This document shows positions 1,569 through 4,691 of a DNA stretch of 5,539 bases, one piece after another (position 1 is the first letter of the stretch; each line of letters opens with the position of its first letter). The notes beneath the pieces are model-generated. The model did not search any database. It was not told the origin of the DNA and saw only the letters and a list, made by a program, of their open reading frames with translations. Source of the stretch: a virus (Duplodnaviria > Heunggongvirae > Uroviricota > Caudoviricetes); the IMG/VR virus record IMGVR_UViG_2713896903_000003. The stretch is one strand, 5' to 3'. Made by a program: the position numbers and the translations under genes.

Positions 1569-1823
1569 TCAGATTTGCCCTTGAGAGTTTTTGCGGGCGT
1601 TTTGCCAGTCCTTACGGGCCTGTTCAGACGGGAATAACCCGTAGCCAGAGTTGTATACATCACCACTGGCAACCAGCTCTCTGGCGAGAATGCTCATCAG
1701 ATATCTTGTCGCACCTGTCTTGACTTCCAGTTGCCGTAACGTCTCACGCCCACTCTGGCGTACGAGTTCAACAACCTGCCCTTTAATTTTTTCTCGCTCT
1801 TCTTGTGTAAAAACTTTTGCCAC
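1569..1823 (-). CDS. Hypothetical small protein, 84 aa, possible HTH-like
   Basis: GTG start at 1823 with AGGAGG SD 4 nt upstream (minus strand). Directly downstream of the replication-initiator gene. No family recognised. Confidence 0.55.
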   Translation of the reverse strand: MAKVFTQEEREKIKGQVVELVRQSGRETLRQLEVKTGATRYLMSILARELVASGDVYNSGYGLFPSEQARKDWQNARKNSQGQI

Positions 1824-1863: not shown

Positions 1864-2934
1864 TTACCCCCTGAAGCCCGGTGGAATTTCGGTATCTGGT
1901 TCAGAAATGTGATTCACGCAACGCTGGTTGTTCGTACCGCTTACCGGGAGCAACCAGGGGTTTTCAAAATTCCGGTCCGGTCCAAAAAACGTCGTCGCTC
2001 GCTGAACAAATTCCGTTCCCGTTTTCCCGGTAGCCGCCAGGTATCTTGCGTAACGCCTCACACCATCCAGCATGGCTTCTGGTGGCACCCCCTCGCGTAA
2101 TCTGGCCTTCCAGGCACTGAAAGCGGATTTCTTCGGGTTTGCCCCGGCACGCAACGGGTACTCCCGCCAGACCTGTTCGAACACATCCGGATAATCCACT
2201 CGTCCCACAGACTGCCCGGTGTTTTCCGGGACTACCCGATCGGCTTCCCGCTGAATGGCGGAATCGGCTTCAGGCTGCTGCAGTTGGTGTGATTGCTCCG
2301 GCCTTGCGGTCATCACCTGCTGCACAGCGCCCGAATCGGCTTTCAGCGCATACGCTGAATCGGCTTCCGGTGTCGTGCCTGCTGGCTGACCAGGATTGAC
2401 GGTCTGAACACCCCCTGCCTGGTTCGTGGCGTTTTTTACGCCATGGACCATAGTGTTTTGATCTTCTTGATCTGTATCTTTATCTGTATCTTTATCTGTC
2501 GTGACTCGTCGTGACATGTGCGTGACATTTCGTGACGCGCCGTGACAATCGCCATTTTGTTCCCGCTTTCTTTCCCTCTCTCGCTGCGCCCTCTTGCGCT
2601 CTGCAGGAGATTTTGCGGTTTGCGAAATATTGCCGTTGTCCTCTTTAAGCACTTGGCGTTTTTCCCATCCAGTGATTAAATCACCATCAAGTACCCGCCC
2701 CTGCATCGTCTGCAAAATTGAATCAATTACCTCTTCTGTCACGTCGAGCGCACTTGCCAAATCTTCTGTCGTGACATCAATGTGACCTCGCGTGACATTT
2801 CGTGACGCGCTCACCAGGAGGTGGATATACACTGCCATCACTGTTGCAATTGGCTGCCCTGACACCCTGGCAATTGTTCGCCACTTAGGGTCATTTGGCA
2901 TGTCATGCCATAATCTGAGCCAGGCGTTAGCCAT
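1864..2934 (-). CDS. Putative phage replication initiation protein (O-like replisome organizer), 356 aa, with origin-like iterons inside the coding sequence
   Basis: Long ORF. Preferred start is ATG 2934-2932 with AAGAGGTGA SD; the track begins at GTG 2940. N-terminus (AWLRLWHDMPNDPKWRTIARVSG...VYIHLLVSAS) fits the winged-helix pattern of phage/plasmid replication initiators, and the C-terminus (FEQVWREYP...AFSAWKARL...NPWL) fits a motif common in such initiators. Sits where lambda O sits, downstream of the cro/cII equivalents. Contains two CGTGAC iteron arrays. Confidence 0.7.
   Translation of the reverse strand: MANAWLRLWHDMPNDPKWRTIARVSGQPIATVMAVYIHLLVSASRNVTRGHIDVTTEDLASALDVTEEVIDSILQTMQGRVLDGDLITGWEKRQVLKEDNGNISQTAKSPAERKRAQRERERKREQNGDCHGASRNVTHMSRRVTTDKDTDKDTDQEDQNTMVHGVKNATNQAGGVQTVNPGQPAGTTPEADSAYALKADSGAVQQVMTARPEQSHQLQQPEADSAIQREADRVVPENTGQSVGRVDYPDVFEQVWREYPLRAGANPKKSAFSAWKARLREGVPPEAMLDGVRRYARYLAATGKTGTEFVQRATTFFGPDRNFENPWLLPVSGTNNQRCVNHISEPDTEIPPGFRG
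2470..2499. repeat. Tandem 12-bp repeat ATCTGTATCTTT (about 2.5 copies), encoding (TD/KD)n in the initiator protein
   Basis: Read directly: atctgtatcttt at 2470-2481 and 2482-2493, then atctgt at 2494-2499. Immediately abuts iteron array 1. Confidence 0.8.
2500..2546. repeat. Iteron array 1: five direct CGTGAC repeats at 10/11/10/10-bp spacing (candidate origin of replication)
   Basis: CGTGAC at 2500, 2510, 2521, 2531 and 2541, i.e. helical-turn phasing. Lies in the middle of the initiator gene, analogous to lambda ori inside O. Followed by a pyrimidine-rich tract encoding a K/R/E-rich linker. Confidence 0.65.
2732..2810. repeat. Iteron array 2: four direct (C/T)GTGAC repeats plus one inverted copy; the final 20 bp are identical to the end of array 1
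   Basis: GTGAC at 2771, 2782, 2792 and 2802 (11/10/10 spacing). Inverted CGTGAC at 2738-2743. tcttctgtc duplicated at 2732-2740 and 2762-2770. cgtgacatttcgtgacgcgc is identical at 2791-2810 and 2521-2540. Confidence 0.6.
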
Positions 2935-3005
2935 ACTCACCTCTTTTGATACCGAATCTTTTTACTCACAAATTGCCGGAAGTGATCCGGTATGAATATT
3001 GCGAG

Positions 3006-3431
3006 TCAATGCACAGCCACAATATTTCCTGCAGGGCCACCACGATTCATCTGGTTGAAACCAGCGATCGCCACTGCGACAAAATCATCAGCGTCTCTCA
3101 CCAGTCGCTCCCGCGTCTCCACCAGCTCCCGAAAATAAGCTGAACTGTGGCTGCGCATTCTGGCCACCAGCAAAGGTGGCATTGCCTTTTCGATCGCTGG
3201 TAACAACGCCTGAATTTTTTCAACTGCATCAGGGGTGTCTTTCTCTACCCAGCGGAAAATTTTCTGGGTATTGCGAGCCAGGGCTTCCGGATGGCTGTCG
3301 TCATACAGTTCAGGAAACGTCATACCCAACTCAAAATAAGCCTGGGTTATTCCAGCTGCTGGAACTTTTTCGCCATCAGGACGCGCCCAGGCATTCATCG
3401 CCATGCGGATGTGTTCATGCTTGATTTTCAT
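3006..3431 (-). CDS. ydaT: YdaT-like protein (functional CII equivalent of Rac/CP-933P-type prophages), 141 aa
   Basis: ATG at 3431 overlaps the TGA of the upstream HTH gene (ATGA). GGAG SD 8 nt upstream. Size and position, second gene after the Cro-like HTH, match the ydaS-ydaT arrangement. Name assigned from memory of that family, not from a search. Confidence 0.6.
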   Translation of the reverse strand: MKIKHEHIRMAMNAWARPDGEKVPAAGITQAYFELGMTFPELYDDSHPEALARNTQKIFRWVEKDTPDAVEKIQALLPAIEKAMPPLLVARMRSHSSAYFRELVETRERLVRDADDFVAVAIAGFNQMNRGGPAGNIVAVH

Positions 3432-3730
3432 GAATCAACTCCATCAGATAAGCATGCACTACAATCACCTTCAGCATGAACTACATGTGTTTGCCCCAAA
3501 CGAATACCGCTCGCATACTCAGGCCAAATAAGCTCCCAATCATGGGGTCGTAGCTCCGCCCTACTTACTTGGCCTTCCGTCGCAGATTCGATCATAAGGG
3601 CGCGGGTTGGAGATATAGCTGCTCGTCCAGACGCCATTTGCGATAAGTAAGATGGCGATACACCAAGTCTGGCCGCGAATTTCTTAGCATCACCAACCCT
3701 CAATGATTTAATAAACTCTTTTAATGTCAT
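3428..3730 (-). CDS. ydaS: Cro-like XRE-family HTH regulator (YdaS-like), 100 aa
   Basis: ATG at 3730 with GAGGAAGG SD. HTH signature (AKKFAARLGVSPSYLSQMASGR). Divergent from the repressor gene across an operator-rich intergenic region; translationally coupled to the downstream gene. Confidence 0.7.
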   Translation of the reverse strand: MTLKEFIKSLRVGDAKKFAARLGVSPSYLSQMASGRAAISPTRALMIESATEGQVSRAELRPHDWELIWPEYASGIRLGQTHVVHAEGDCSACLSDGVDS

Positions 3731-3827
3731 ACCTTCCTCGGTTTAGTGTTTTTTTGCGAGTTTAGTGTTTAATAAACCATTAAGTCAAGTATTTGCTTGT
3801 TTAGTGATTACTAAAGATAATTACCAC
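3731..3827. promoter_or_regulatory. Divergent promoter/operator region (OR-like genetic switch)
   Basis: Three direct GTTTAGTG repeats (3741-3748, 3760-3767, 3799-3806). Perfect inverted repeat GTTTAaTAAAC (3767-3777). Imperfect palindrome TTAGTGATTACTAA (3801-3814). Leftward candidate promoter: TTGACT (minus, 3788-3783) with TAAACT at 18-nt spacing. Rightward candidate promoter: TTGCTT (3793-3798), 17 nt, GATAAT (3816-3821). Confidence 0.6.
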
Positions 3828-4199
3828 ATGCAAAAAAAAGAAATTCGCCGTTTACGTCTCAAGGAGTGGTTTAAAGATAAAACTCTGCCACCCAAAGAGA
3901 AGAGCTACCTATCTCAACTAATGAGTGGGAGGGCCTCGTTTGGAGAAAAGGCTGCCAGAAGAATAGAGCAAACATACGGGATGCCGGAAGGGTATCTGGA
4001 TGCGGAATACGCAGAACAACCGGAAGCTTCTCCACCACATGCGGGGTTAACGTCTAATCAACTGGAATTATTGCAGATTTTTTCAGCCTTCCCTGAGGAT
4101 GAGCAACGCCAGATAATCAGCGAGTTAAAGCAGAAAAAAGAATCAATGGAAGATCTCATAGCGAGATGGATTGCGGCGCAAAAATGCCGCCGCGCCTGA
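3828..4199 (+). CDS. paaR2: Prophage repressor / transcriptional regulator of the three-component TA operon (PaaR2-like; DicA/cI functional analogue), 123 aa
   Basis: ATG at 3828 preferred over the GTG at 3765 used by the ORF track. No SD, and the -10 ends 6 nt upstream, suggesting a leaderless mRNA like lambda cI from PRM. N-terminal HTH-like segment (LSQLMSGRASFGEKAARRIEQ). Divergent to the Cro-like gene. Symbol from memory of the CP-933P module. Confidence 0.65.
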   Translation: MQKKEIRRLRLKEWFKDKTLPPKEKSYLSQLMSGRASFGEKAARRIEQTYGMPEGYLDAEYAEQPEASPPHAGLTSNQLELLQIFSAFPEDEQRQIISELKQKKESMEDLIARWIAAQKCRRA

Positions 4200-4219
4200 G
4201 TTATAAAACCGGAGGAAAC

Positions 4220-4411
4220 ATGAATAGAGCCCTTTCACCAATGGTTTCTGAATTTGAAACCATTGAACAAGAAAACAGTTACAACGAATGGCTGCGCGCG
4301 AAAGTAGCAACGAGCCTTGCAGATCCGCGCCCAGCAATTCCCCATGACGAAGTTGAGCGCAGAATGGCAGAACGCTTTGCTAAAATGCGCAAGGAACGGA
4401 GCAAGCAGTAA
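4220..4411 (+). CDS. paaA2: Small antitoxin-like protein (PaaA2-like), 63 aa
   Basis: ATG 4220 with GGAGG SD. Stop TAA 4409-4411 lies 1 nt before the toxin ATG. Small, charged, likely partly disordered protein immediately upstream of a ParE-like toxin. The ORF-track start at 4166 is rejected as it has no RBS. Confidence 0.65.
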   Translation: MNRALSPMVSEFETIEQENSYNEWLRAKVATSLADPRPAIPHDEVERRMAERFAKMRKERSKQ

Positions 4412-4412
4412 A

Positions 4413-4691
4413 ATGTTACCCGTGTTATGGCTTGAAAGCGCAGATACCGACCTAGATGATATAACTAGTTATATTGCTCGTTTCGACATAGATGCGGCTG
4501 AACGCTTATGGCAGCGATTAAGGGGTTGTGTGCTGCCGTTATCCGAACATCCGTATTTATACCCACCAAGCGACAGAGTACCTGGCTTGCGTGAGATTGT
4601 AGCCCACCCTAACTATATAATTCTATACCGCGTAACAACATCAAGCGTTGAAGTAGTAAACGTGATCCACGCAAGACGCCAGTTTCCCTAA
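4413..4691 (+). CDS. parE2: ParE/RelE-superfamily toxin (ParE2-like), 92 aa
   Basis: ATG 4413 tightly coupled to the upstream gene. C-terminal pattern REIVAHPNYIILYRV...VEVVNVIHARRQFP is typical of ParE/RelE-fold toxins. The ORF-track start at 4317 would overlap the antitoxin gene and is rejected. Confidence 0.7.
   Translation: MLPVLWLESADTDLDDITSYIARFDIDAAERLWQRLRGCVLPLSEHPYLYPPSDRVPGLREIVAHPNYIILYRVTTSSVEVVNVIHARRQFP

Follow-up and report, generated by a model that had tools for sequence, protein, structure and literature searches.

The question raised by this locus is why a phage replication initiator gene should hold the same short repeat in two separate places. The DNA under study, a stretch of 5,539 nucleotides from a tailed virus (Caudoviricetes; IMG/VR virus record IMGVR_UViG_2713896903_000003) that is called the window throughout, encodes an initiator in whose open reading frame (ORF) the hexamer GTCACG is clustered twice. 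One cluster, array B, lies in the part coding for a linker, the other, array A, about 260 bp upstream of it within the coding sequence of the N-terminal domain. An initial annotation had noticed a second iteron-type cluster about 270 bp from the first, had called two arrays in one initiator gene unusual, and had offered a bipartite origin, a handcuffing or copy-control site, or a recent internal duplication as explanations. Our analysis shows that both arrays are retained in distant relatives, with the repeat sequence changed in the two together, so that array A is very probably a working binding site of a putative two-part origin rather than the product of a chance duplication. As judged from sequence comparison, the finding is more general than was initially supposed and concerns a conserved, co-evolving second array in a widespread initiator family.

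The anatomy of the two arrays in the window is clear-cut (Table 1). CGTGAC on the plus strand corresponds to GTCACG on the gene strand, which is the minus strand. Ten copies of CGTGAC are present in the 5539-base window, whereas 1.97 +/- 1.32 are expected and none of 200 shuffled sequences reached ten; nine of the ten copies belong to the two clusters. The sole copy outside the arrays, at 1845-1850 and 14 nt past the initiator stop codon, is within chance expectation for a single occurrence. On the plus strand, array A consists of CGTGAC at 2770, 2791 and 2801 and of the degenerate TGTGAC at 2781-2786, and array B has its copies at 2500, 2510, 2521, 2531 and 2541 with a spacing of 10/11/10/10 bp, for which Tandem Repeats Finder (TRF) reports a period of 10 at 2498-2547. 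The 20-mer CGTGACATTTCGTGACGCGC occurs exactly at both 2521-2540 and 2791-2810 and is not matched by any shuffle even when up to three mismatches are allowed, while TCTGTCGTGAC is exact at 2495-2505 and 2765-2775, again with an offset of 270 bp. The second cluster and its 20-bp identical core, as described in the initial annotation, are therefore confirmed by the hexamer counts, the shuffles and the exact match. The identity between the arrays is limited to the repeat units, as the 15 nt separating the two exact blocks differ, and a longer duplicated segment shared by the array regions was not found in the window. The duplication at the protein level, which had also been pointed out, needs a different wording. 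Both peptides in question, SASRNVTRGHIDVTTED and GASRNVTHMSRRVTTDKD, are present in the ORF translation. Hexamers spaced by 10 bp fall into successive reading frames, so that GTCACG is read as V-T, then as x-H-x and then as S-R. The repeated SRNVT peptide results from two units standing in the same frame in both arrays, since 270 nt equal 90 codons; it is a by-product of the DNA repeat and not a separate fact.

The comparison with homologues carries the main argument. In tblastn searches the N-domain (residues 3-140) was found to recur with unrelated C-terminal domains and unrelated neighbours, sharing 69.5% identity with the proteins of the Pseudomonas phages phi1 and 5371, 47% with that of a spring-water phage and 38% with that of the Ralstonia phage Hennie. 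Phage phi1 has both arrays with GTCACG, plus the inverted copy and the AT-rich run, Hennie has GCAACG in both arrays, and the spring-water phage possesses array B only. A scan with one genome per species added another 80 loci, which were distributed over gamma-, beta- and alpha-proteobacteria and a few additional phyla; a scan of viral contigs with an alignment of four N-domains yielded only 80 E. coli copies that were nearly identical, and no added diversity. The comparison set comprised 59 non-redundant loci whose array B has three or more phased hexamers. Array B is present in essentially all homologues with three to seven copies, and a second cluster of the same hexamer is found in the first about 290 nt of the gene at 44 of the 59 loci, two more having been mis-scored owing to the hexamer register. 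Two arrays in one initiator gene are thus not unusual in this family, and a universal restriction of the homologues to one array, which had been named as an argument against function, does not apply, as array A is absent from about one quarter of them. Both arrays occur in phages or prophages of Pseudomonas, Ralstonia, Bordetella, Aquitalea, Stenotrophomonas, Sphingomonas and others, with N-domains that are 35-70% identical.

Furthermore, the repeat itself differs by lineage, being GTCACG, GTAACG, CGAACG/GAACGC, GCAACG or GTGACG, and it is always equal in arrays A and B. The own hexamer of a locus occurs at least twice in region A at 45 of 60 loci, compared with 3.3% for hexamers of other classes, and its density amounts to 11.8/kb in region A versus 0.94/kb in the rest of the gene. 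Within the about 2.8 kb considered per locus, clusters of the own hexamer exist only at arrays A and B. Several hexamer classes are found inside each of the two N-domain subfamilies (WLRLWHDMP... and W.RWHHGTV...), hence the hexamer must have been switched repeatedly, each time in both arrays. The preferences for flanking bases are likewise common to A and B, a T preceding the hexamer and a C or A following it. The inverted copy beside array A, CGTGAC(A), is kept in 11 of 13 tabulated homologues of the GTCACG class, where it uses GTG and the codon ACA, and equivalent inverted copies were observed in the GCAACG and GTAACG classes. In none of the loci was a hexamer cluster detected upstream of the gene, i.e. 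in the promoter region, by which a candidate auto-operator at that place was ruled out. Two longer homologues from Serratia and Pantoea (L128 and L151; 1191 and 1305 nt) may have a different layout judging from their repeats, which are located at gene nt 325-360 and 640-650. They show a further hexamer, ACTACG, in mixed orientation and have no array A, but some 300 nt downstream of array B a second, small pair is present.

These observations bear directly on the proposal of a recent event, in which a part of array B would have been copied by duplication or gene conversion into the N-domain coding region, leaving a functionless copy. The exact 20-mer and the exact 11-mer at a shared offset of 270 bp, a multiple of three, are what such an event would leave behind, and gene conversion between the arrays may still explain the exact 20-mer in the E. 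coli lineage. However, array A occupies the same place in phi1 and in many genera and must accordingly be ancient, while the recent transfer of one sequence is excluded by protein identities of 35-70%. Moreover, A and B agree in their repeat units and in the preferred flanking bases but nowhere else, and the synonymous sites of the hexamers are fixed across species. With both arrays spread across genera and the hexamer co-varying, a recent duplication is rejected as extremely improbable, whereas the other two explanations of the initial annotation, a bipartite origin and a handcuffing or control site, remain viable.

A codon test was made with 13 homologues that share the peptide ASRNVTRGHxxVT. 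In 91 of 91 cases the hexamers are built from the codons TCA, GTC, ACG, GGT and CAC, although the same codons account elsewhere in those genes for 13% (TCA), 29% (GTC), 25% (ACG), 18% (GGT) and 69% (CAC) of the codons of their amino acids. The codons of the spacers (CGN, AAY, position 8-9) and those that come next drift freely. Since synonymous sites are fixed in the hexamers only, it is the DNA and not the peptide that is under selection in array A. This result is difficult to combine with the alternative that the repeats are a side effect of selection on the protein (the SRNVTRGH motif) or represent sites for a host factor. It is true that R51 and G52 are conserved family-wide and that the segment is predicted with high confidence in the structural model (predicted local distance difference test, pLDDT, above 90). 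Nevertheless, the peptide changes completely between hexamer classes, an ordinary loop stands at this place when array A is missing, and three loci (L156, L159 and L161) combine a GTCACG array B with an ordinary SQSNPRGELS-like loop and an array A located elsewhere. A host factor as the reader is contradicted by the hexamer being different among related enterobacterial hosts and shared across distant ones. Taken together, such an origin of the repeats appears very improbable.

Array A is also mobile within the gene. Lineages without it have an ordinary short loop at the respective position (N..ERG.L), while other loci have expanded it by insertions of purely repeat-encoded peptide (L085, L109, L125 and L003), for example TCHGVSL in Escherichia albertii, a 23-residue insert in L109 and GNADAT in the GCAACG class. 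The E. albertii insertion (L085; array A at gene nt 128-180) comprises 21 nt or seven codons, which equals two units of 10 and 11 bp and points to a gain of units in frame-preserving pairs. In the Stenotrophomonas loci L156 and L161 array A resides in a loop that is inserted further upstream (nt 83-103); the Lysobacter locus (L160) has five inverted copies at nt 55-92, and in L139 five copies extend over the helix-turn-helix region (nt 192-222). The apparent re-creation of array A at other places, in either orientation and with a hexamer that invariably matches array B, is difficult to account for unless it has a function.

Regarding the protein that recognizes the hexamers, the N-domain is the sole element common to all loci, as the C-terminal domains, the downstream partners and the upstream genes differ. 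GTCACG is found in Escherichia, Pseudomonas, Bordetella, Aquitalea, Acidovorax and Stenotrophomonas, whereas GTAACG is used in Enterobacter and Pantoea relatives; the hexamer thus tracks the lineage of the N-domain and not the host. Because of these two observations, the N-domain of the initiator itself is the likely reader of the hexamers. The possibility that specificity is set by the loop that array A encodes was ruled out by the three loci with an ordinary loop mentioned above.

The AlphaFold2 model of the initiator, built from 41 homologues, is confident at residues about 10-95 (mean pLDDT 87-98 per ten-residue block). It shows helices at residues 6-16, 18-27 and 31-47, a loop and a short strand at 48-57, helices at 58-65 and 69-79, and further on a beta wing at 80-91, a charged helix at 112-128 and disorder at 132-161. 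The protein is composed of an N-terminal winged-helix domain (about residues 5-95), the charged helix, a disordered linker and a DnaT/DnaD-like C-terminal domain, with a fold of the N-domain that resembles the N-terminal domain of DnaD. Array A encodes S46-T57, comprising the end of the long helix 31-47, the loop and the first short strand. The inverted copy encodes D66-V67-T68 in the turn of the helix-turn-helix between helices 58-65 and 69-79, and the disordered linker is encoded by array B together with the following DKDTDKDTD run. Matches to the replisome organiser models stayed below threshold, with 12.7 bits for PF09681 (cut-off 23.3; E 0.13) and 15.4 bits for TIGR01714 (cut-off 49.8; E 0.016). 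Since the sub-threshold alignment to Phage_rep_org_N covers the whole model (positions 1-118 of 121) and RefSeq uses the name 'phage replisome organizer', a distant relationship of the initiator to this family is likely on the basis of its sequence.

The DNA that follows array B has features of an origin core. Gene-downstream of array B come a 12-bp tandem repeat, located in the stretch of the gene with the lowest GC content, and then an inverted repeat. The tandem repeat TCTTTATCTGTA was detected three times at 2465-2500 by TRF; it reads GATAAAGATACA on the gene strand and encodes the DKDTDKDTD run. The GC content reaches its minimum of 35-38% at 2430-2519, compared with 52-63% in flanking windows. 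Owing to the layout, which is that of ori-lambda and of SPP1 oriL, array B and its AT-rich neighbour are presumed to form the origin core. Similar elements were seen in the homologues. In most loci (L084-L163), a strictly 6-bp-periodic AT-rich run of three to ten units (GATAAA, GATACA, GAGACA or GCAGAA) comes after array B and encodes DKDK, DTDT, ETET or AEAE in the linker. Many homologues (L100, L135, L144, L157, L158, L142, L123, L113 and L001) additionally have a perfect palindrome just past the AT-rich run, about 20-60 nt after array B, such as TCTCTCTCTCC-tgac-GGAGAGAGAGA. The stems of these palindromes are wholly different between loci, while a 4-nt centre recurs (TGAC, TAAC, TATC or TGGC), and the mean best stem measures 6.2 nt after array B versus 5.2 nt in the next 130 nt. 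The preserved complementarity in spite of changing stem sequences suggests a selected hairpin or cruciform.

The putative origin also coincides with a mosaic joint of the initiator (around residues 140-160, nt about 2460-2520). The Pseudomonas phages share only residues 3-140, while other coliphages and the Shigella phage 75/02 Stx share only residues 160-358 (65% identity). The position of the joint implies that the N-domain is exchanged together with both arrays as one cassette, and the C-domain together with its partner.

How array A contributes can be formulated as a model in which array A, array B, the AT-rich run and the palindrome would constitute a two-part origin inside the initiator gene, with array A as an accessory, stimulating element; we give this model about an even chance. 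Array A would be a second cluster of sites for the N-terminal winged-helix domain. Initiator protomers would bind the hexamers of both arrays one helical turn apart, head-to-tail and on one face of the DNA, and the two protein-DNA assemblies, about 260 bp apart, could touch and thereby form a loop of the intervening DNA. Such a loop would raise the occupancy of array B and facilitate opening of the adjacent AT-rich element, at which the C-terminal domain could then recruit the helicase machinery. At the same time, array A would overprint a tolerant loop of the DNA-binding domain, by which specificity and both site clusters could be inherited as one cassette. Without exception, array A is located on the same side of the AT-rich element as the iterons. 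The accessory nature of array A follows from its absence in about one quarter of the homologues. A positive sign of its effect is favoured, because array B tends to be larger in homologues without array A (4.6 versus 3.8 copies; p = 0.06, uncorrected for phylogeny) and because a lytically replicating phage has little need for copy limitation; the larger B arrays lend weak support to a contributing, positive role. In its strictest form, the model demands that two helically phased hexamer arrays communicate via a protein-bridged loop of ~260 bp for firing or control, an undescribed design in a widespread family that switched its hexamer at least five times; this form we put forward tentatively, somewhat below even odds.

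Several points weigh against such a joint action of the two arrays. About one quarter of the homologues work without array A. The distance between A and B varies from 178 to 350 bp (median 260) with no evident helical phasing, and the orientation of array A flips in the Lysobacter locus, both of which make a rigid joint complex unlikely. Copy numbers of A and B show a trend toward compensation only (Spearman -0.11, not significant). A continuous filament joining the arrays was ruled out, as weak sites are missing from the gap: one-mismatch and exact hexamers reach 11.9/kb between the arrays versus 11.1/kb downstream and 9.1/kb in the 400 bp upstream. The consensus of the integration host factor (IHF), WATCAANNNNTTR, has zero matches across the window, and an IHF-assisted loop was discarded accordingly. 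The helix at the usual recognition position (residues 69-79) is acidic, and the literature provided no binding, replication or looping data for any member of the family. It is possible that array A acts independently of array B.

The evidence for a binding site would equally suit a negative role. Here, the bound array A could be bridged to array B, either in cis or between sister molecules, with handcuffing or looping that blocks melting as the result; it could also titrate the initiator, or act as an intragenic roadblock that would limit transcription of the initiator gene and the genes downstream. A control site is compatible with the variable distance and orientation as well as with the dispensability of array A in about one quarter of the homologues, which is reminiscent of the control arrays of iteron plasmids. 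Rep dimers of iteron plasmids use inverted repeats for repression, and the inverted copies beside array A recall these. Handcuffing is, furthermore, an established mechanism (PMC4857107). On the other hand, a lytically replicating lambdoid phage has little evident need to limit its copy number, hexamers are missing from the 400 bp ahead of the gene, the expected place of a classical auto-operator, and the slight tendency toward larger B arrays where A is absent suggests sites that are additive and not opposed. Overall we regard a negative role as rather unlikely, though it is the main rival of the preferred model.

The constant position of array A on the iteron side of the AT-rich element would also agree with a programmed fork barrier, at which the bound initiator stops the fork heading to the 5' end of the gene and thus enforces unidirectional replication or the switch from circle-to-circle to rolling-circle replication. 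In phage SPP1, gp38 binds oriR, and fork collision was proposed as the trigger of the theta-to-sigma transition (PMC6316719). This reading is pure analogy, however, because the SPP1 site is 13 kb away and has an AT-rich element of its own, which array A lacks, and array B would already represent an equivalent barrier 260 bp nearer to the start. A fork barrier is hence considered improbable.

The preferred model of a two-part origin with a stimulating array A can be compared with several known systems. The origin of phage lambda is situated inside gene O, in the linker-coding part between the DNA-binding N-domain and the partner-recruiting C-domain (PMC6022878, PMC5043065, PMC7466680). The window is alike in having array B in the linker-coding region, followed by an AT-rich region, within the initiator gene, and in the arrangement of this gene in a cro / cII-like / initiator operon, by which transcription runs across the origin. 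However, lambda has one array of four iterons (six in Stx phages), which are inverted repeats of 18-19 bp bound by O dimers (PMC6022878), whereas the units in the window are direct, about 10 bp long and have a 6-bp core. In addition, the window contains the second array 260 bp upstream in the coding sequence of the DNA-binding domain, and its initiator lacks a match to the Pfam family Phage_rep_O of lambda O. SPP1 gp38 recognizes direct repeats beside an unwinding element in its own gene 38 (oriL), and oriR is a second bound repeat region (PMC5737612, PMC6316719). The window shares with SPP1 the annotation of the initiator as a replisome organiser, a winged-helix N-domain of DnaD-like fold, and the embedding of direct repeats and unwinding element in the gene. 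The differences are that the second SPP1 site lies 13 kb away and intergenic with its own AT-rich element, whereas array A is 260 bp away in the same gene without one, and that the Phage_rep_org_N match of the initiator is below the curated cut-offs.

In iteron plasmids, control iteron arrays exist as a second repeat cluster, for example incA of P1 and incC of F. The window resembles these in the presence of a second array of the same repeat outside the minimal origin that is not universally required (44 of 59 loci), and pairing or looping between the arrays is possible. In contrast to P1 incA, F incC and R6K, where the arrays flank rep in non-coding DNA, the iterons measure 17-22 bp and the initiator is of the RepA/pi type, both arrays of the window lie within the coding sequence of an unrelated phage initiator, for which no Pfam or NCBIfam match to the RepA/pi (Rep_3) family was obtained. 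The satellite phage P4 also has an origin in two parts, with short initiator-recognised repeats at ori and at the separate, cis-required crr, about 4.5 kb apart. Its initiator alpha is a primase-helicase and unrelated to the initiator of the window, hence the likeness is restricted to a phage origin in two parts. Control arrays and handcuffing have been described for iteron plasmids and Vibrio chromosome II (PMC4857107, PMC6090056). A prior description of paired arrays in the present family was not found in the literature, which is weak evidence as older origin papers are thinly covered.

As a whole, the window represents the region for immunity and early replication in an E. coli prophage of lambdoid type (Table 1). 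The initiator corresponds to PHROG 3729 'replication initiation protein' (E 6e-257), its N- and C-terminal halves giving separate PHROG matches; a Pfam family was not hit at E <= 0.01, and at E <= 10 the matches were weak and unrelated. RefSeq also uses the name 'DnaT-like ssDNA-binding domain-containing protein', and some phage records label the gene 'replication protein O', which is an annotation only. Gene copies covering at least 80% are present in 1647 of 5426 complete E. coli genomes (~30%) and in seven sequenced coliphages. The predicted promoter upstream of the cro-like gene would transcribe the YdaS-like, YdaT-like and initiator genes and thereby cross both arrays. Another promoter-like match, at 2522-2549 (+), was dismissed, because it consists of the repeats themselves and the count of promoter matches is at chance level. 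In the region 1569-1863, the gene after the initiator is DUF977/Ren-like and encodes neither a helicase loader nor a helicase, while the same position is taken by a P-like gene in phi1 and by dnaB in Hennie; the DnaT/DnaD-like C-domain of the initiator may recruit host factors directly. On the repressor side, the operon at 3828-4691 (+) codes for a DicA-like regulator, a PaaA2-type antitoxin (PF21217, E 1e-19) and a ParE toxin (PF05016, E 2e-16), and this three-gene toxin-antitoxin module occupies the usual place of a cI-type repressor gene.

Table 1. Features of the window (positions in nucleotides of the 5,539-nucleotide stretch; a dot marks features without strand).
Feature	Position	Strand	Remarks
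Array A	2770..2806	-	four direct GTCACG copies, the third degenerate (GTCACA), spacing 10/10/11 bp
Inverted hexamer copy	2738..2743	+	GTCACG on the plus strand, 26 bp gene-downstream of array A
Array B	2500..2546	-	five direct GTCACG copies in the linker-coding region (residues about 131-148)
AT-rich segment	2430..2500	.	presumed DNA-unwinding element; TRF and GC content
Imperfect inverted repeat	2420..2450	.	13-nt arms, 5-nt loop, on the far side of the AT-rich segment
Small genes	beyond the DUF977/Ren-like gene (downstream)	-	
DUF977/Ren-like protein	1569-1823	-	84 residues
Replication initiator ORF	1864-2940	-	358 residues
YdaT-like protein	3006-3431	-	
Cro/YdaS-like protein	3428-3730	-	
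Sigma-70-like promoter match	3759..3788	-	upstream of the cro-like gene; consensus scan, pattern match, context only
DicA-like repressor	3828-4199	+	
PaaA2-like antitoxin and ParE toxin	4220-4691	+	

The finding is of interest beyond this single prophage. The textbook intragenic phage origins of lambda and SPP1 are described as a single array with an AT-rich element, to which array A adds a second element. Its role is cleanly testable, since synonymous recoding would destroy the array and leave the protein unchanged. It further represents a case of dual coding, in which selection on a DNA site dictates a protein loop, including insertions of purely repeat-encoded peptide. The five or more hexamer classes with related N-domains provide a ready specificity series for DNA reading by this winged-helix initiator, and the in-step hexamer switches would, if the interpretation is true, amount to a natural recognition code for its winged-helix domain. 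Finally, the gene is very common in E. coli prophages, hence origin and incompatibility determinants of this kind bear on prophage induction, superinfection and mosaic recombination.

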